Shown piece after piece: positions 13,499-44,917 of a stretch of DNA of 45,293 nt. The notes below the pieces were generated by a model. It was not told the DNA's origin and searched no databases. It saw only the letters and a program-made list of their open reading frames with translations. The translations under genes were made by a program, and so were the position numbers. The stretch lies in IMG/VR virus record IMGVR_UViG_2571042653_000011, one strand, 5' to 3'. This DNA comes from a virus (taxonomy: Duplodnaviria > Heunggongvirae > Uroviricota > Caudoviricetes). How positions within the stretch are numbered: the first letter of the stretch is position 1; each line of letters opens with the position of its first letter.

Positions 13499-13515
13499 TT
13501 TTGTGGAGAACGTTG

Positions 13516-13881
13516 ATGCGTGATATTCAAATGGTTCTTGAACGTTGGGGGGCATGGGTGGCAAATAATCACGAGGATGTCACCTGGTCGTCTATTGCTG
13601 CAGGATTTAAAGGACTAATCCCTTCAAAAGTAAAATCCCGCCCGCAATGTTGTGACGATGATGCGATGATCATTTGTGGGTGCATGGCTCGCCTGAAAAA
13701 GAACAACAGCGATTTGCACGATTTATTAGTGGATTATTATGTAGGTGGTATGACGTTTATGGCGCTTGCCCGTAAACATGGGCGTTCTGATTGCTGGGTT
13801 GGGCGTTTATTGCAAAAGGCTGAAGGTGTAGTTGATGGCATGTTAATGATGTTAGAAATTGAGCTAGAGATGGATCGTTAG
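13516..13881 (+). CDS. Late-gene antitermination protein Q-like
   Basis: 121 aa from ATG 13516 (GGAGAA upstream); cysteine-rich segment ([16 protein letters not shown]); last gene of the early-right operon before the late region. Confidence 0.55.
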
Positions 13882-13965
13882 AAGACCTCTTATTGAGGGG
13901 GTAATTGAATCAGTTTAATGTGTGGGGAGTCGATTTATTCTCCCCATTTTATTTAATTAATTTAC

Positions 13966-14412
13966 TTAAGGTTTTAATTCATCAAGACGTTGTTGGATAG
14001 TGTTTTTGCTTGCGTTGTCTGTTATAGCCATTTGTTGTACTTGCCCCATTGCCATTTGAGTTTCCATCCACATATCGGCCCACACTTTTGTATCGTTATT
14101 AACTTGAGCGATAGTAAATCTGACTTTTGATACCGGGGTTGTTGAATAGGCATTGCCGATTAACATTTGTCCAAAAACAGCAGACCCGCCTTCCAGTTCT
14201 TTACCACATATAACACTGCTGTTATCAGCGTTGTAAATTATCAACCCTCTACTATTGCAGTAATTCACAAGGGCATCTTTGACTTTATCTTTTGTCGTAT
14301 TTTGATAAACCCCCTCAGGTTTTCCTGATTGAGTTTTTTTTATCAATGGTACGGAAGAAGTACAACCTGAAATGATAGTTGCGCTAAGTAATAGTACAGT
14401 CATTTTATTCAT
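13966..14412 (-). CDS. Lipoprotein (moron, unknown function)
   Basis: 148 aa; signal peptide with lipobox LLSATIISGC; opposite strand to flanking genes; AT-rich by eye. Confidence 0.6.
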   Translation of the reverse strand: MNKMTVLLLSATIISGCTSSVPLIKKTQSGKPEGVYQNTTKDKVKDALVNYCNSRGLIIYNADNSSVICGKELEGGSAVFGQMLIGNAYSTTPVSKVRFTIAQVNNDTKVWADMWMETQMAMGQVQQMAITDNASKNTIQQRLDELKP

Positions 14413-14456
14413 GTTTCTTATCCATTGTTAAGGGCATACCTACACAATTATTTTTA

Positions 14457-14485
14457 TTGGAGATGAATAATCAACCGTTTACAAT
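14457..14485 (+). promoter_or_regulatory. Late promoter candidate (PR'-like)
   Basis: TTGGAG, 17-bp spacer, TACAAT; downstream of Q and upstream of the late genes. Confidence 0.35.
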
Positions 14486-14540
14486 CGTAAAAAATCAAAT
14501 ATGCTGTTAAGAGTGGTTACTTCGCCACACAACTTAAACC

Positions 14541-38596: not shown

Positions 38597-38623
38597 AGCC
38601 CGCCGGTTCAGGCGGGCTTTTTT
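38597..38623 (+). terminator. Intrinsic terminator downstream of lom
   Basis: GCCCGCC-GGTTCA-GGCGGGC followed by T6. Confidence 0.6.
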
Positions 38624-38634
38624 GTGGAGTGGAT

Positions 38635-40983
38635 ATGGCAGCAGTAAAAATCTCAGGTGTGCTGAAAGATGGTGCGGGAAAACCAATACAGAACTGCACT
38701 ATTCAACTGAAGGCAAAGCGTAACAGCACCACGGTACTGGTGAACACGGTGGCCTCTGAAAATCCTGATGAAGCCGGGCGTTACAGCATGGATGTTGAGT
38801 ATGGCCAGTACAGCGTCACCCTGCTGGTTGAAGGTTTTCCGCCTTCACATGCCGGGACCATTACCGTCTATGAAGGCTCCAGACCAGGTACGCTGAATGA
38901 TTTTCTCGGTGCCATGACGGAAGATGATGTCATGCCGGAGGCATTGCGCCGTTTTGAGGCAATGGTGGAAGAAGCGGCACGCAACGCCGAAGCCGCCTCT
39001 CAGAGCGCAGCGGCGGCAAAGAAATCCGAAACTGCAGCGGCATCATCGAAGAACGCGGCGAAAACGTCAGAAACGAATGCAGCTAATAGTGCACAGGCGG
39101 CAGCGACCTCAAAGACTGCATCGGCAAACTCCGCGACAGCAGCCAAAAAATCAGAAACCAACGCGAAAAATAGCGAGACAGCCGCAAAGACGAGCGAAAC
39201 CAACGCAAAGTCCAGCCAGACGGCAGCGATAACCAGCGAAACGAATGCTAAAGCCAGTGAAACTGCGGCAAAAAACAGCCAGGTTGCAGCAGCCGAAAGC
39301 GAGAGCGCGGCAGCCGATTCTGCGACTTCAGCAGCTGGATCAGCAACTGCTGCGGCTAACAGTCAGAAAGCAGCGAAGACGAGTGAAACTAACGCAAAGT
39401 CCAGCCAGACGGCAGCGAAGACCAGCGAAACGAATGCCAAAGCCAGCGAAACTGCGGCGAAAAACAGTCAGGATGCGGCGGCCCAAAGCGAGAGTGCTGC
39501 AGCTGGTTCTGCAAGTGCGGCGGCTTCTTCTGCCACTGCATCAGCCAACAGTCAAAAAGCTGCAAAAACCAGTGAAACCAACGCAAAGGCGAGCGAGACT
39601 GCGGCGACTAACTCGGCAAAAGCATCCGCTGCAAGCCAGATGGCTGCAAAAGCAAGTGAAGACGCAGCGAGAGAGTATGCAAGCCAGGCAGCAGAGCCGT
39701 ATAAATATGTCTTACAGCCACTGCCTGATGTGTGGATACCGTTTAACGATTCACTGGATATGCTTGCTGGCTTTTCGCCTGGTTATAAGCAAATAACTGT
39801 AGGTGATGATGTTATTAAAATGCCATCCGATAAGGTTGTTAGCTTCAAACGCGCATCAGGTGCAACATACATTAATAAATCAGGTGTATTAACCGTTGCT
39901 GAAGTTGACGAACCGCGATTTGAACGAGAAGGTTTGCTGATTGAAGGACAGAGAACAAACTATTTCAGAAATTCAAATACACCAGAAGCATGGAATAACA
40001 CGGGTAGTGTGTCTGTTGAGTCGTTCGACAGTGATAATGGGTTTAACTATGGAAGGATAACTGTTATTAATGAAAATCCGACAGCACAAGGATATCAGGC
40101 AATTGCTGTAAACACGAATGATGCTTACACCTGCCCGGCAGGTTCTTATACGACGATATCGTGTCTGACGAAAAGTGATAATTCCCGGTGTCGTGCAAGG
40201 TTCGGAAAAATGTCTGATAATGGTGCGTTTGTTTTTCATTCAGATGCAGCTCTGGATCCTGTTACGGGAAATGTTGTTCATGGAAATAATGTGACGGTGA
40301 CGGCAGAAAGAGTCGGTGAATGGTGGTTGTTTACCGCCACTCTTTTTGCAGATGAGGAAATGATAATCAGCTCAAGATTTGAAATCCTGGCGATGCCTGG
40401 AATCAGTATTATCCCCAATGGCTCTACGTTAGATATTGCGATGCCTCAGGCGGAGATTGGGTCGTACAGGACGTCATTTATCATTACTGAAGGGGCTCCT
40501 GGCACTCGCTCCAGCGACATGGTGACAATACCTGTAAGAAACAATATTCACCGATTACCATTCAGTGCTCTTGTTGAAGTTAATAAAAACTGGGATATCC
40601 CTCCCAGCAAATCACCATTAATCTTTAATGTTAAAGATTATCAGGAAAATGGTCTGTTCACGCATGGATTCCGTGGTAATAATTTCTCTGATGCCGGTTC
40701 TCCTTTTATTTCTATGGGAGGGTGTAATAAATATGTGGCAACAACCCAGAGGAAAATCATTTCAGGCTTACGTTGTGGCGCTGATGGAGATGTTCAGGCC
40801 GTATGTAATGGTGAATTATCTGTTGCGGCAAAAACAACATGGACTTCAATTGTTCCACGGGCAGTATTGCGAATTGGAGGGCAGGGCACTAATGGGGAGT
40901 ATCATCTTTTTGGTCATATCCGTAATCTGCGTATCTGGCATAAAGAATTAACTGATGCGCAAATGGGGGAGAGTATTAAATGA
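38635..40983 (+). CDS. Side tail fibre protein (Stf-like) with repeat-rich shaft and divergent C-terminal domain
   Basis: N-terminus MAAVKISGVLKDGAGKPIQNCTIQLKAK resembles lambda Stf (recall); central Ala/Ser/Thr repeats; the C-terminal third is AT-rich by eye. Confidence 0.85.
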   Translation: MAAVKISGVLKDGAGKPIQNCTIQLKAKRNSTTVLVNTVASENPDEAGRYSMDVEYGQYSVTLLVEGFPPSHAGTITVYEGSRPGTLNDFLGAMTEDDVMPEALRRFEAMVEEAARNAEAASQSAAAAKKSETAAASSKNAAKTSETNAANSAQAAATSKTASANSATAAKKSETNAKNSETAAKTSETNAKSSQTAAITSETNAKASETAAKNSQVAAAESESAAADSATSAAGSATAAANSQKAAKTSETNAKSSQTAAKTSETNAKASETAAKNSQDAAAQSESAAAGSASAAASSATASANSQKAAKTSETNAKASETAATNSAKASAASQMAAKASEDAAREYASQAAEPYKYVLQPLPDVWIPFNDSLDMLAGFSPGYKQITVGDDVIKMPSDKVVSFKRASGATYINKSGVLTVAEVDEPRFEREGLLIEGQRTNYFRNSNTPEAWNNTGSVSVESFDSDNGFNYGRITVINENPTAQGYQAIAVNTNDAYTCPAGSYTTISCLTKSDNSRCRARFGKMSDNGAFVFHSDAALDPVTGNVVHGNNVTVTAERVGEWWLFTATLFADEEMIISSRFEILAMPGISIIPNGSTLDIAMPQAEIGSYRTSFIITEGAPGTRSSDMVTIPVRNNIHRLPFSALVEVNKNWDIPPSKSPLIFNVKDYQENGLFTHGFRGNNFSDAGSPFISMGGCNKYVATTQRKIISGLRCGADGDVQAVCNGELSVAAKTTWTSIVPRAVLRIGGQGTNGEYHLFGHIRNLRIWHKELTDAQMGESIK
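39050..39620. repeat. Tandem coding repeats inside the tail fibre gene
   Basis: A ~180-bp unit (about 39190-39365) recurs at about 39370-39545 with high identity, built from shorter ~21-bp sub-repeats encoding AAKTSETNAKSSQT-like heptads. Confidence 0.6.
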
Positions 40984-41261
40984 AAGATTTAACACTCAAA
41001 TTTGCAGACAGGGCCGACTTTTCGGCCTTTATGGAGAGTATTGGCTATTATGATGACGAGTCGATGCAGGATGATATTCTTATTGACGTGATAGGTAACG
41101 TGTACAAAGAAAGCGGAGAACTGACTGAAGATGGCGAACCGGTATGTGTTAAGGAAGACGGATATTTTGTAAACGTGCGCATCATTAATGATGCAAAAAA
41201 ATCGTCAATATTCGATAAATACGCGATTGTTGTTGAGCATCAACTTCGTGGCTGGATGTGA
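40980..41261 (+). CDS. Hypothetical protein downstream of the tail fibre (possible fibre-associated factor)
   Basis: 93 aa; acidic; ATG overlaps the tail fibre stop; no family recognised. Confidence 0.4.
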   Translation: MKDLTLKFADRADFSAFMESIGYYDDESMQDDILIDVIGNVYKESGELTEDGEPVCVKEDGYFVNVRIINDAKKSSIFDKYAIVVEHQLRGWM

Positions 41262-41270
41262 GGGAGACAA

Positions 41271-41975
41271 ATGGCTACATCGACAGTAATTCCAGGAGAC
41301 ATCACCACGTTAAAGGGAGATGTCAGTAAAGCCAAGGAAGATATTTCCTCAATTAACGGAAAAGTATCAACGCTTCAGACTGATATGACCAGTGCAAAGC
41401 AGGATATCAGCACCAGATACACAAAAACTGAAGTTGATAATAAGCTGAAAAACAAAGTGGAAGTGAACGATCTGGAAAGTGGTCGTTATGGTGGAGATTT
41501 TTACCCGCTGACTGGTCGTGAAGCGTTTTATTTGTGGGGATTGGGCACGACTACAGCGGCGGCAAACCTTTATCTTAATCCTGACCCCGCAATTTCGTCT
41601 GTACTGCGGTCCACATCGTCTATCCGCTATAAACATTCAGTAGAGACGATAGATTCGGAGCACGCCGATCTCATTTTCAAGATGCGCCCTGTGTGGTACA
41701 GGTCGCAATGCGAAAATGACAGGCGCGATTGGGGATTCTATGGATTGATTGCCGAGGAAGTAGGAGAAATTGCCCCTCAGTTTGTTCACTGGCGACCAGC
41801 TAACGAGAATGATGCTCCTGAAGCTATTTCCAGCAATGGCCTTGTTGCCGAAGGTGTAATGTACGAACGTCTGGTTGTTCCACTGATTCACCATATCCAG
41901 AAACTGACTGAAAGAGTTGATGAACTTGAGTCAGAATTAAAGTTGTTATCAACTTCCCGAAGCGATATCGGATAA
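41271..41975 (+). CDS. Tail-fibre-like protein with C-terminal intramolecular chaperone (peptidase S74-like) domain
   Basis: 234 aa; N-terminal coiled-coil; C-terminal segment WGFYGLIAEEVGEIAPQFV ... YERLVVPLIHHIQKL fits the S74 chaperone pattern (recall). Confidence 0.55.
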   Translation: MATSTVIPGDITTLKGDVSKAKEDISSINGKVSTLQTDMTSAKQDISTRYTKTEVDNKLKNKVEVNDLESGRYGGDFYPLTGREAFYLWGLGTTTAAANLYLNPDPAISSVLRSTSSIRYKHSVETIDSEHADLIFKMRPVWYRSQCENDRRDWGFYGLIAEEVGEIAPQFVHWRPANENDAPEAISSNGLVAEGVMYERLVVPLIHHIQKLTERVDELESELKLLSTSRSDIG

Positions 41976-41985
41976 AGGAGGAGTA

Positions 41986-42273
41986 ATGGATATAACACCT
42001 TTCCTTCATGCACTTTGTGCTGTGGCTGCACAGGTACTGATTGGCCTTTTTACCGGAAACTGGGCTTACGGGGCGATAGCCGGTTGTACGTTCTTCATTG
42101 CGCGTGAACACACCCAGGCAGAATATCGCTGGATTGAAATGTTCGGACATGGCAAGCGTATGAATATGCCGTGGTGGGGCGGTTTTGATCCGCGCGTGTG
42201 GGATGTAGCAAGCCTGATGGATTTTGCTGTGCCGGTGATGGCGTGTCTGCTGGTCTGGCTGTTTATCCGTTAA
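41986..42273 (+). CDS. Small membrane protein (95 aa), unknown function
   Basis: Consensus SD AAGGAGG before the ATG; predicted hydrophobic helices at both ends. Confidence 0.45.
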   Translation: MDITPFLHALCAVAAQVLIGLFTGNWAYGAIAGCTFFIAREHTQAEYRWIEMFGHGKRMNMPWWGGFDPRVWDVASLMDFAVPVMACLLVWLFIR

Positions 42274-42383
42274 ACATAAAAAGCCGCAGCAACTTGTCAT
42301 GGCAGAATACTGCGGCTGGCTGGTGAACTTCCGATAGTGCGAGTATTGAATGATTTCCAGCCGTTATCGATTTTACGTATTAA

Positions 42384-42632
42384 TTAATGAACAAACCACT
42401 CGTCAGCAGACTCCCAGGTATCTTTCAGAGTTTCCTGAACAAAAGTTTTAGCTGAATCTTTATCGGCGGTGCGCGTAACAGAAAGGCCATCGTTGCTGGT
42501 GGCTTTTACGATCACCTCTACATCGTCATAACGCTTACTGATGCGTCGAGTTAATTCTTCCTTTAACGCATCCACAGCACCGTTTGGCATTTTAGTCATT
42601 TTCTCTTTGGCTATGCAGATCTCAATACGCAT
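42384..42632 (-). CDS. dinI: DinI-like DNA damage-inducible protein
   Basis: 82 aa; resembles E. coli DinI (MRIE...IAK ... [14 protein letters not shown]) from memory; tandem LexA boxes immediately upstream. Confidence 0.8.
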
Positions 42633-42645
42633 AAAAATCCCTCTA

Positions 42646-42693
42646 TACTGTGTTTGTATACAGTATTATTTTTAACTGTATGAATAAACAGTG
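42646..42693 (-). promoter_or_regulatory. Two tandem LexA (SOS) boxes in the dinI-like promoter
   Basis: TACTGTGTTTGTATACAGTA (42646-42665) and CTGTATGAATAAACAG (42676-42691), both CTGT-N8-ACAG; minus-strand TTGACA overlaps the integrase stop. Confidence 0.7.
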
Positions 42694-43791
42694 TCAAGAG
42701 GTCTTATTTCTGCTCCTTTGGAGTTCTTCAAAACGATTATGTAAAGATTTTGGATACAGTTCGGTATATACCTGCCATAGCACGTTTAATGAACGATGCC
42801 CTGTAACCTGGGCGACTTCCTCAATACTAAAACCAGCCTCAAATAAGCGACTTGCCCCTTCTCTACGCAAATCATGGTATCGCAGATCTTTAATACCTAA
42901 TTTGCTTCTTACCCTCTGAAATCCTGCGGTAACAGAAGTGCTGTTGTATGGAAAAATGAATTCAGATTTTTTGGGTTGTCGTTGGACGATATCCCAGGCT
43001 TCCCCAAGCAAGGCCACTTTCATATGGTTACCTTCCTTTTTACGTGGATCTTTCCTGTCTCTTACTAGTATAGATTTTTGTTCCTGGTCGAGATCTTCCC
43101 ATCGTAACCGGCATACTTCTCCGATTCGCATACAGGACCACACAGAAAATTTGAGGATATCAACGAACGGAATTTTTGAGCATTTATGAGTAGATCGTTG
43201 TTGAAGGCCTTCAATGAGCATGTCTAGTTCATCAGATGCTGGTCTACGATTACGACGATTTGATTTACCAATTAAACCAAGTTTAAGTAGATATGGACGA
43301 GCGGCTTTTGCTGGGTTTGATGTGTAATTAATTCCGTATACAGGTTTGGCTGCATCCAGAACACTGCCAAGATAACTAACATCGTGGCTAACAGTAGCTG
43401 GACCTGCACCGGCGTTGTTTCTCAACCTGCAATGTTCTATTACGTCATTTTCTGTTAATTCAGATAGTCTGATCGCAGAAATGTCACTATCCATAAGTAG
43501 TTCCAGCACATATCTTTTAGTACGGCCTGCTTTACCTCCGGCATTTGGGTCATTTAAATATTTGCGTAGTAAGTCACGGACTGTAAGCCCGTCAACAGCA
43601 TTTGATGATGGAATGCCATGTAGATCTAATTCCATCACTTTCTGTGTGCCCCATGTTTTGGCATGAGCATGTTTAGGGAATGTTTTGCTTTCCCTGTAAG
43701 TGATAACCCCTTTTTCTTTGATAATCACATTACAGCGATAGCGTGGTGTGCCATCGGATTTTAGTCGTTTCTCTATGTTATAGTACGCCAT
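42694..43791 (-). CDS. Tyrosine-type integrase (dusA-associated)
   Basis: 365 aa; C-terminal catalytic region with R...H.LR...Y pattern (HDLRREGASR ... LWQVY); adjacent and divergent to dusA. Confidence 0.9.
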   Translation of the reverse strand: MAYYNIEKRLKSDGTPRYRCNVIIKEKGVITYRESKTFPKHAHAKTWGTQKVMELDLHGIPSSNAVDGLTVRDLLRKYLNDPNAGGKAGRTKRYVLELLMDSDISAIRLSELTENDVIEHCRLRNNAGAGPATVSHDVSYLGSVLDAAKPVYGINYTSNPAKAARPYLLKLGLIGKSNRRNRRPASDELDMLIEGLQQRSTHKCSKIPFVDILKFSVWSCMRIGEVCRLRWEDLDQEQKSILVRDRKDPRKKEGNHMKVALLGEAWDIVQRQPKKSEFIFPYNSTSVTAGFQRVRSKLGIKDLRYHDLRREGASRLFEAGFSIEEVAQVTGHRSLNVLWQVYTELYPKSLHNRFEELQRSRNKTS

Positions 43792-43879: not shown

Positions 43880-44917
43880 ATGCACGATAATCATGAAACA
43901 CAAAAAATTAATCAAACCAGCGTGATGCCTGAAAAAAATGGTGTTTACTGGAATTCTCGGTTTAGCATTGCTCCTATGCTCGACTGGACGGACAGACATT
44001 GCCGCTATTTCTTGCGTCTGCTTTCCCGCAATACGTTGCTGTATACCGAAATGGTGACCACAGGGGCGATTATTCACGGTAAAGGTGATTATCTGGCGTA
44101 CAGTGAAGAAGAACATCCGGTAGCATTGCAACTGGGCGGTAGCGATCCGGCGGCGCTGGCGCAGTGTGCAAAGCTGGCAGAAGCGCGCGGATATGATGAG
44201 ATCAACCTGAATGTCGGCTGCCCGTCTGACCGGGTGCAGAACGGCATGTTTGGGGCGTGTCTGATGGGTAATGCGCAGCTGGTTGCCGACTGCGTGAAAG
44301 CGATGCGCGATGTGGTGTCGATTCCGGTGACGGTGAAAACGCGTATTGGCATCGACGACCAGGACAGCTATGAATTTCTCTGCGATTTCATCAACACCGT
44401 TTCCGGCAAAGGCGAGTGTGAGATGTTCATCATCCATGCTCGTAAAGCCTGGCTTTCGGGGTTAAGCCCGAAAGAAAACCGTGAAATCCCGCCGCTCGAT
44501 TATCCGCGTGTGTATCAACTGAAGCGTGACTTTCCGCATCTGACAATGTCGATTAACGGTGGTATCAAGTCGCTGGAAGAGGCTAAAGCGCATTTGCAAC
44601 ATATGGATGGCGTGATGGTCGGGCGCGAAGCGTATCAAAATCCGGGTATTCTGGCGGCGGTAGACCGAGAGATCTTTGGTTCCTCGGATACCGATGCCGA
44701 TCCGGTGGCGGTAGTGCGCGCCATGTATCCGTACATTGAGCGTGAACTCAGCCAGGGGACGTATCTTGGCCATATTACCCGGCATATGTTGGGCTTGTTC
44801 CAGGGTATTCCTGGCGCGCGGCAGTGGCGGCGTTATTTAAGTGAAAATGCCCATAAAGCGGGTGCAGACATTAATGTGCTGGAACACGCGCTCAAACTGG
44901 TGGCGGATAAGCGTTAA
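43880..44917 (+). CDS. dusA: tRNA-dihydrouridine synthase A
   Basis: 345 aa; flavin-dependent Dus TIM-barrel features with catalytic Cys (NLNVGCPS); the first ~30 codons are likely supplied by the prophage end. Confidence 0.9.

Follow-up and report, generated by a model that had tools for sequence, protein, structure and literature searches.

The locus described here raises the question of how a temperate phage could change the part of its side tail fibre that meets the bacterial surface, and of which neighbouring genes accompany that part. It lies in the IMG/VR virus record IMGVR_UViG_2571042653_000011, a stretch of 45,293 nucleotides (nt) that was analysed whole and is called the window below; all coordinates are positions in it. 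This region matches E. coli FDAARGOS_497 at 100%. Because the RefSeq gene order in that strain runs from J through an Ail/Lom protein, a ‘prophage tail fiber N-terminal domain-containing protein’, a hypothetical protein, a ‘tail fiber domain-containing protein’, a second hypothetical protein, a DinI-like gene and a tyrosine integrase to dusA, the locus makes up the far end of the late operon in a lambdoid E. coli prophage that is integrated at dusA. The explanation that we favour for the side tail fibre gene (stf) and the three small genes behind it, and that we consider moderately probable as a whole, is that they constitute the host-range module of a dusA lambdoid prophage, made up of an anchored fibre, an exchangeable lectin-like head, a factor of 93 amino acids (aa) and a docked, self-processing mini-fibre. 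Modules of this sort are common, catalogued and ordinary, as hundreds of E. coli genomes and several isolated phages carry them, and their families are already present in PHROGs (phrog_1419, phrog_1361, phrog_3299, phrog_4563 and phrog_1443) and also in NCBIfam. This one ordinary example is of value because it illustrates such a module neatly and yields hypotheses that can be tested; it is not a discovery.

Exchange of the fibre head as a cassette

The genes of the module and the segments of the fibre gene are as follows.

38629-40983, plus strand: stf, the side tail fibre gene, 784 aa from a GTG at 38629 (the RefSeq start is an ATG at 38635; WP_022646430.1), with a full-length match to phrog_1419
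38641-39030, plus strand: N-terminal domain of Stf (aa 5-134; PF08400), the part that matches lambda Stf
38989-39693, plus strand: Ala/Ser-rich heptad-repeat shaft (aa 121-355, about 34 perfect heptads) in strict 7-residue register, with a GC content of 0.55
39694-39999, plus strand: conserved ‘neck’ of the head (EPY..PLPDVWIPFNDSLDM..), where low GC content starts, with 72-84% DNA identity between alleles and many invariant residues
40000-40900, plus strand: hypervariable head core (aa ~457-757), which takes in most of two predicted concanavalin-A-like domains
40980-41261, plus strand: 93-aa gene coding for an acidic protein, with a start codon that overlaps the stf stop (ATGA)
41271-41975, plus strand: 234-aa gene (S74 mini-fibre), with a ribosome-binding site GAGGGAG 6 nt upstream; the short allele of a two-allele slot
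41986-42273, plus strand: 95-aa gene coding for a hydrophobic protein (phrog_1443), the right flank of the slot

We compared these segments among 80 IMG/VR loci that encode full-length relatives of the fibre, of which 78 were used for the base composition of alleles and for shaft length. At the amino acid level the N-terminal domain is mostly 96-99% identical (about 90% in a few loci) and the shaft is about 95% identical. The C-terminal 409 aa exhibit 38-48% identity in most of the loci and 99% identity in 12 of them, and the 93-aa and 95-aa proteins are 82-99% and 89-99% identical, respectively. The boundaries are sharper in the DNA, where identity is at least 95% up to 39650, 72-84% over 39700-40000, about 45% over 40000-40900, 96-100% over 40900-41270 and 93-97% over 41986-42270, with unrelated sequence past 42270. 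Clustering at 85% identity gives at least 14 head clusters in this sample of 80 loci, and in one further case (P0185) a head that is 95% the same is carried on a different, shorter shaft of the phage 21 type. These alignments show that the head core behaves as a cassette between conserved arms and that the receptor-binding region has undergone mosaic exchange. A preliminary description of this DNA had already proposed such an exchange, and a recent one, on the grounds of AT-richness. The exchange is borne out by the drop to about 45% DNA identity over 40000-40900, but AT-richness is weak evidence that it was recent.

A different observation does suggest recency. Of 5426 complete E. coli genomes, 149 have this head allele, each at an identity of at least 99%, whereas the adjacent 234-aa S74 gene is present in 746 of the 5426 and is mostly 95-99% identical. 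Because the head core is this uniform relative to the adjacent gene, it appears that this head allele is younger than its flanks and has spread recently.

We propose that the head core would be swapped between phages by homologous recombination in the conserved arms, with the neck (39694-39999) probably acting as the left homology arm and the 3′ part of stf together with the 93-aa gene as the right one. Experiments have demonstrated that lambdoid phages recombine with resident prophages at stf (PMC3945230). Switching by an invertible segment of the Gin/Cin/Min type, or by a diversity-generating retroelement, was rejected since there are no inverted repeats of 18 nt or longer in 38600-42700 and no invertase or reverse transcriptase among the open reading frames (ORFs) from 38600 to the integrase. 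As a separate observation, the FDAARGOS_497 chromosome (NZ_CP033850.1) has two matching places each for the head core (40000-40900) and for the 234-aa gene. A second resident prophage of this strain probably carries the same head and mini-fibre alleles and would be a ready recombination partner.

All genes of the module are under purifying selection. Specifically, the median ratio of nonsynonymous to synonymous substitution rates (dN/dS, Nei-Gojobori) is 0.13 for the fibre N-terminus and shaft, 0.30 for the 93-aa gene, 0.18 and 0.22 for the short and long forms of the S74 gene, and 0.20 for the 95-aa gene.

Low GC content marks the cassette pool

The guanine-plus-cytosine (GC) content is 0.547 over the N-terminus and shaft of stf (38629-39699) and 0.423 over the rest of the gene (39700-40983), with values of 0.404, 0.451 and 0.517 for the downstream 93-aa, 234-aa and 95-aa genes, respectively. 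The step is located at 39650-39700, which is the shaft/head junction, and recovery starts from about 41500. Among 1800-bp windows along the prophage, 39700-41499 has the lowest GC content, 0.419, with a fraction of 0.001 of them being this low or lower; the late-gene region has a mean of 0.545 and a standard deviation of 0.023. The preliminary description had called the distal third of the fibre gene and the next three genes AT-rich, and had suggested plots of GC skew and codon usage as a check. The AT-richness is real, but its extent is the distal 55% of stf and two of the three genes. Base composition is not uniform across the region, with GC content going from about 0.55 to about 0.42 at about 39700 and GC at third codon positions (GC3), where the drop is strongest, going from 0.49 to 0.34.

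This low GC content could be ascribed to the amino acid composition of fibre heads, or to a local mutational or selective bias in them, in which case it would be no sign of foreign origin. Consistent with this, all 78 head alleles examined have a GC content of 0.39-0.45, as does the conserved 93-aa gene, whatever their history. However, the fall is greatest in GC3, so amino acid content does not explain it, and the compositional boundary coincides with the shaft/head junction. Furthermore, the homologous locus of the virulent T1-like phage KarlJaspers has a GC content of 0.42-0.43, which is the same as that of its surrounding genome region and which fits a pool that is shared with lower-GC virulent phages. 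We consequently regard a purely compositional or local bias as very improbable. The low GC content marks the pool of cassettes, not a recent event in this prophage, and as proof of such an event it was rejected since every allele is equally AT-rich.

The prophage also contains two other low-GC islands (0.36-0.42), at 13500-14500 and 500-1000. A 148-aa ORF in the first of these (13966-14412, minus strand) has no match in Pfam or PADLOC.

The head is predicted to contain two lectin-like domains

Residues 437-628 of the head match the gene transfer agent (GTA) head-spike-fibre domain of NCBIfam (NF048003) at 64.9 bits (cutoff 36), covering positions 1-181 of the 182 in the profile. The AlphaFold2 (AF2) model of residues 376-784 (84 homologues) is all beta, with a predicted local distance difference test (pLDDT) score of 82.7 and a predicted template modelling (pTM) score of 0.81, and it has the form of a jelly-roll beta-sandwich of the lectin type. 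The head is thus predicted to comprise two concanavalin-A-like (lectin/LamG-like) beta-sandwich domains, the first of which would belong to the RcGTA head-spike-fibre family. The Laminin_G_3 profile (PF13385) gives a weak match to head residues 347-403 (16.4 bits vs a cutoff of 27.6, E 0.011) and is precomputed on a few homologues of the head. Structure prediction of the C-terminal domains, also suggested as a check in the preliminary description, therefore returns a lectin-type all-beta fold for the head and a chaperone fold for the 234-aa protein that is discussed below.

The lectin-type beta-sandwich domain is common to the head and to the RcGTA head spike fibre, but here it is located at the tip of a tail fibre and in tandem with a second LamG-like domain. 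Because the RcGTA head-spike fibre binds capsular polysaccharide (PMC10218006), and because O-antigen is the presumed target of the lateral fibres in small siphoviruses (PMC8594841), the most likely function of the head is to bind a surface glycan (O-antigen, lipopolysaccharide or capsule) in a first, reversible step of adsorption.

A small acidic protein that may take the place of Tfa

The fibre begins in the manner of lambda Stf, as had been recognised in the preliminary description. Its N-terminus matches PF08400 with an E value of 9.9e-67 (223.5 bits vs a cutoff of 26.6), residues 5-97 align to the solved ‘Tail fiber protein’ chain 9e7m_Ta (E 7.5e-49), and by both ORF order and RefSeq annotation stf is located after J and lom in the late operon, which is the same position as in lambda. 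The alignment with lambda stf/tfa that had been suggested as a check gives 84% DNA identity, from the end of lom to 38987 only. At the protein level there is 59% identity to lambda orf-401 over residues 5-331, with an Ala-rich repeat shaft in common. The distal part is unlike lambda, with no BLAST match between the fibre and lambda orf-314 or tfa and no tblastn match between the three downstream proteins and the lambda stf-tfa region. A chaperone of the lambda Tfa type (Caudo_TAP) is absent, judging by Pfam and by BLAST comparison with the lambda stf-tfa region, and the Pfam scan of the main fibre detected no chaperone domain of its own. Where lambda has Stf and Tfa, this locus instead has the lectin-like double-domain head, the 93-aa protein and the S74 mini-fibre.

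The 93-aa protein is acidic, with a pI of 4.3, belongs to phrog_1361 and, given the ATGA overlap of its gene with stf, would be translationally coupled to the fibre. Genes of this type directly follow a fibre gene in six groups of phages, namely lambdoid, T1-like, Nonagvirus, Dhillonvirus, T5-like and rV5-like phages. The protein has no match in Pfam, NCBIfam or PADLOC, and among solved structures there is nothing meaningfully related to it (best E 0.11). An exhaustive search of 1.84 billion representatives gave 48 clusters, which are small stand-alone proteins save for two low-complexity matches; fused forms that could have been a clue to its partner are absent from these clusters. Because it is always linked to this type of head, we infer that the 93-aa protein may be the cognate assembly factor (chaperone) or adaptor of the head, taking the place of Tfa.

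The same arrangement is found in isolated phages. Phage 21 (OL657228) and the prophage-derived phages IdasGreatGrand, PhiR49_1 and PhiR55_1 all have the same fibre architecture followed by a 92/93-aa gene and a 95/97-aa membrane-protein gene, and in the latter three phages the 234-aa gene is also present at 92-97% identity. Phage 21 differs by having a 255-aa shaft, a head that is 38% identical and no S74 gene, and IdasGreatGrand differs by having one 63-aa shaft unit fewer and a head that is 40% identical. Several Drexlerviridae (KarlJaspers, SECphi27, PeterMerian) and phage JenP2 also have a fibre with a head of the same family (41-45% identity), an overlapping 92-aa gene (42-53%) and a stand-alone S74 protein. 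For their lateral fibres, O-antigen has been proposed as the primary receptor (PMC8594841). These phages differ from the prophage by being virulent. The anchors also vary, with the KarlJaspers fibre having a different N-terminal anchor and the JenP2 fibre having PF08400.

The S74 slot probably encodes a second, shorter fibre

Two parts of the 234-aa protein are central to its interpretation.

41271-41318, plus strand: conserved N-terminal peptide (aa 1-16, MATSTVIPGDITTLKG), common to the 234-aa and 346-aa alleles and to the Drexlerviridae and JenP2 homologues
41616-41972, plus strand: S74 chaperone domain (aa 116-234; PF13884), with Ser116/Ser117, Lys121 and Glu125 and a pLDDT of 82-91

Residues 116-172 match the Peptidase_S74 profile (PF13884, positions 1-57 of 58) at 27.5 bits vs a cutoff of 22, and the protein also matches the C-terminus of LtfA from phage DT57C (chain 8hqz_d, E 8.5e-7). 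In an alignment of 42 homologues, K121 and E125 are invariant and S116 and S117 are at least 90% conserved, which gives a Ser-x4-Lys spacing at the start of the domain. The AF2 monomer has helices at 12-47 and 52-60 and a domain at 120-233 with the high pLDDT noted above. A Foldseek search with this domain returned first 7dc3 (MyRF ICA, E 1.2e-5) and then the phage chaperones 3gud and 3gw6. By profile and by predicted fold, the C-terminus is evidently a genuine S74 intramolecular-chaperone domain. The preliminary description had proposed a self-cleaving chaperone-type C-terminus, and the domain agrees with this on profile, LtfA match and fold; as to the cleavage itself, the conserved residues suggest that the domain would cut at Ser116 using Lys121 after driving trimerisation. 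The same Ser-x4-Lys motif and the same C-terminal position after a trimeric stalk are present in the S74 domains of K1F endosialidase, the GA-1 neck appendage, T5 pb1 and the eukaryotic MyRF ICA. Relative to these proteins the passenger here, a coiled coil followed by about 55 residues, is unusually short, and a separate small gene encodes it.

The slot between the 93-aa and 95-aa genes is occupied by either a 227-234-aa or a 345-346-aa S74 protein. The short and long alleles have common sequence only in the first 27 residues (74% identity), which include the same 16-residue N-terminus, and the 346-aa allele has its own C-terminal S74 domain (PF13884, E 8.8e-14). Each allele is found with several head clusters, so the mini-fibre slot is allelic and reassorts independently of the head. 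Similar proteins are also encoded outside the lambdoid phages. In many Drexlerviridae, a stand-alone short form (221-231 aa, 57-62% identity) comes after the lateral fibre gene and the 92-aa gene, and a 348-aa form, 41% identical to the 346-aa allele, follows the same pair of fibre and small genes in the Nonagvirus JenP2. The motif M-x-T-x-T-x-I-P-x-D-I-x-x-L-K is present at the N-terminus of the short, long, Drexlerviridae and JenP2 forms. When compared with distant short forms, the mean identity is 62% in the N-terminal motif (75% in Drexlerviridae), 32% in the coiled coil, 54% in the tip and 59% in the chaperone domain. Interchangeable fibres that use one docking site can usually be recognised by an N-terminal peptide that they have in common while their bodies differ, and the 16-residue peptide is a candidate docking motif of this kind. 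The 234-aa protein lacks the PF08400 anchor domain and is encoded beside the main fibre. The best reading of this pattern is that the slot codes for a second, possibly branched fibre. A second, shorter fibre had been put forward in the preliminary description, and the two-allele slot, the purifying selection and the stand-alone Drexlerviridae and JenP2 homologues all speak for it. The gene was also considered as a dead remnant, which was rejected on the basis of its purifying selection and its conservation across phage families.

The coiled coil of the mini-fibre (41271-41450) varies in length by whole heptads. For example, the 227-aa and 234-aa forms differ by one heptad (DVSKAKE), and forms of 245 and 269 aa have extra units of the DVSTLKQ type (heptad variants are seen in P0003, P0011, P0014 and L079).

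Several points weigh against a receptor-binding second fibre as part of the module. Self-cleavage would leave only about 115 residues of the 234-aa protein. It is unusual for a tip that binds a receptor to be conserved, yet this one (aa 61-115) has about 54% identity between the lambdoid form and the distant short forms, most of which are T1-like, and is not hypervariable. In the monomer prediction its pLDDT is below 50. Phage 21 has the fibre type and a 92-aa gene with no S74 gene, and the Harms laboratory annotated the Drexlerviridae homologue of KarlJaspers as a ‘putative lateral tail fiber chaperone’. A literature search found no virion proteome or experiment that places the 234-aa or the 93-aa protein in the particle, and for the S74 mini-fibre or the 93-aa gene in lambdoid and T1-like phages it returned only general statements on variable lateral fibres plus the annotation just quoted. 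As for the main fibre, its glycan binding is read from the fold, and concanavalin-A-like domains also bind proteins.

The KarlJaspers annotation corresponds to a different role for the S74 protein, namely that of a trans-acting chaperone that folds the main fibre and is no component of the virion. This role would be in keeping with the very short mature part, with a tip that is conserved and not variable, and with a main fibre that has neither a chaperone domain of its own nor a Tfa homologue. On the other hand, 100% identical copies of the 234-aa protein occur beside heads that are only 40-44% identical to this one (loci L038 and L068), and either allele, short or long, combines freely with the head clusters. 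The N-terminal peptide is all that the two alleles share, as is typical when fibres are interchangeable and use a common docking site. In phage 21, a fibre of the same type occurs with no S74 gene at all; the mini-fibre is therefore optional, and it is unlikely that the main fibre has it as its chaperone. A better chaperone candidate is the 93-aa protein, which is always present. It also counts against a trans-acting role that the S74 domains of endosialidase and T5 pb1 act in cis. Taken together, we judge this role to be rather improbable.

The conserved tip also bears on a further alternative, in which the 234-aa form would be a reduced version of a longer fibre that docks and trimerises but does not bind a receptor, and so would occupy the docking site as a placeholder or structural stub and confer no second specificity. 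In favour of this, the tail-fibre-like phrog_3299, which has 1385 positions, aligns by its C-terminal end (1147-1384) with the whole protein, longer proteins (276-405 aa) have the same tip and chaperone domain, and the stretch from the coiled coil to the cleavage site has no globular domain. Against this stand the purifying selection on the short form (median dN/dS 0.18), the maintenance of a 221-234-aa stand-alone format at 57-62% identity from lambdoid to T1-like phages, and the presence of the gene in 746 of the 5426 E. coli genomes. The receptor site of T5 pb1 is located in a short tip just before the chaperone domain, so binding by a tip of small size is feasible. A stub of this kind seems to us unlikely, if somewhat less so than a trans-acting chaperone, and we retain a docked second fibre as the preferred reading.

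A possible branched side fibre

In the model that we favour, the N-terminal domain would anchor the main fibre to the tail tip, the coiled-coil shaft would extend it, and the lectin-like heads would bind a variable surface glycan. The mini-fibre would consist of the 16-residue docking peptide, a short coiled coil, a tip of about 55 residues and the C-terminal S74 chaperone, through which it would trimerise and which would then cut itself off. It would use the N-terminal peptide to dock, probably on the main fibre in its distal part, yielding a branched side fibre of two specificities like that formed by LtfA and LtfB of phage DT57C. In this T5-like phage the fibres are branched and L-shaped, with LtfA and LtfB encoded by adjacent genes and the second attached through the first (PMC4728585, PMC10713586). 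The two systems are alike in having two adjacent fibre genes and in the match between the 234-aa chaperone domain and the LtfA C-terminus (8hqz_d). They differ in that LtfA and LtfB are large and have substantial receptor-binding parts, whereas the second fibre proposed here would have about 115 residues after processing and an attachment that we infer.

A more specific version of this model is tentative and, in our estimation, could well be wrong. It holds that the locus codes for a branched side fibre of a sort not described for lambdoids, in which a mini-fibre of about 115 residues would plug by its 16-residue peptide into the head or into the 93-aa protein, that the 93-aa protein would represent a new class of assembly factor or adaptor that replaces Tfa, and that temperate lambdoids would exchange the whole three-gene cassette (head, 93-aa protein and mini-fibre) with virulent phages of the T1-like and Nonagvirus groups.

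The heads of side fibres decide which E. coli surface types can be reached by a temperate phage or by a lambda-based delivery particle. The locus has clean exchange points that could be of use in designing chimeric fibres, namely the shaft/head junction, the stf 3′ end together with the 93-aa gene, and the first ~20 codons of the mini-fibre gene. Two accessories may have to accompany a transplanted head: the 93-aa protein, which is always present, and the S74 mini-fibre, which is optional and allelic.

Shaft repeats and their variation

Within the shaft there is a longer period superimposed on the heptads.

39113-39607, plus strand: higher-order tandem duplication with a 189-bp unit (63 aa, or 9 heptads) in about 2.3 copies that are 77-81% identical

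Tandem Repeats Finder reports the 189-bp unit at 39176-39607, with 2.3 copies and 81% matches, and direct alignment of 39113-39301 with 39302-39490 gives 77% identity. The shaft DNA has a strong AT skew of 0.5-0.7, and the strict heptad register of the protein suggests a trimeric coiled coil. The preliminary description had placed tandem duplications of about 180 bp in a host-range region that started at 39700. The tandem repeat is real, but its unit is 189 bp and it is located upstream of that region.

The variation in copy number that had been anticipated occurs but is uncommon. In 69 of the 78 loci, a sample that is biased towards relatives of the query, the N-terminus plus shaft measures 360 aa as far as the PLPDVW junction. 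The shaft of IdasGreatGrand (L003) is shorter by exactly 63 aa, which is one 189-bp unit, that of L015 is shorter by 49 aa, which is seven heptads, and four loci have a length of 347 aa. There is also a separate class of 255-257-aa shafts that includes phage 21 and 13 database proteins. Unit-length changes of the shaft thus happen, but they are not frequent.

Three long ORFs that are rich in Arg, Lys and Gln overlap the shaft in other frames (38924-39232 and 39245-39796 on the plus strand, 39000-39203 on the minus strand) and recur in related loci. They look like by-products of the 21-nt repeat rather than genes, and the RefSeq annotation has no gene at these intervals.

Flanking genes and the integration site

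The 95-aa protein is conserved and closes the module in nearly all lambdoid loci, including that of phage 21, where its homologue is annotated as a membrane protein with two transmembrane domains. A gene of this type is absent from the Drexlerviridae and JenP2 loci. Pfam gives no match for the 95-aa protein and PADLOC gives none for any of the small genes of the module, and a role of these genes in anti-phage defence was rejected on the latter basis.

One further feature precedes the module.

38597-38618, plus strand: terminator-like hairpin in the gap between lom and stf, with 8 pairs (7 of them G-C) and a T-run, about 10 nt before the stf start; a match to consensus only

If this hairpin acts as a terminator, expression of the fibre module would depend on read-through of late transcription past it.

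At the other end of the module, an 81-nt fragment (42307-42387, plus strand) that RefSeq annotates as an incomplete ‘capsid protein’ pseudogene is located just before the DinI-like gene (42384-42632; PF06183, E 1.2e-19), which is on the opposite, minus strand. The integrase adjoins the tail-fibre end of the prophage and abuts dusA directly (42694-43791, minus strand, and 43880-44917, plus strand), and the prophage is therefore a dusA-integrating lambdoid. In the IMG/VR locus L060 the integrase is 98% the same and the dusA junction is also the same, and in this locus the 346-aa allele of the mini-fibre gene is split by a frameshift into parts of 194 and 148 aa.

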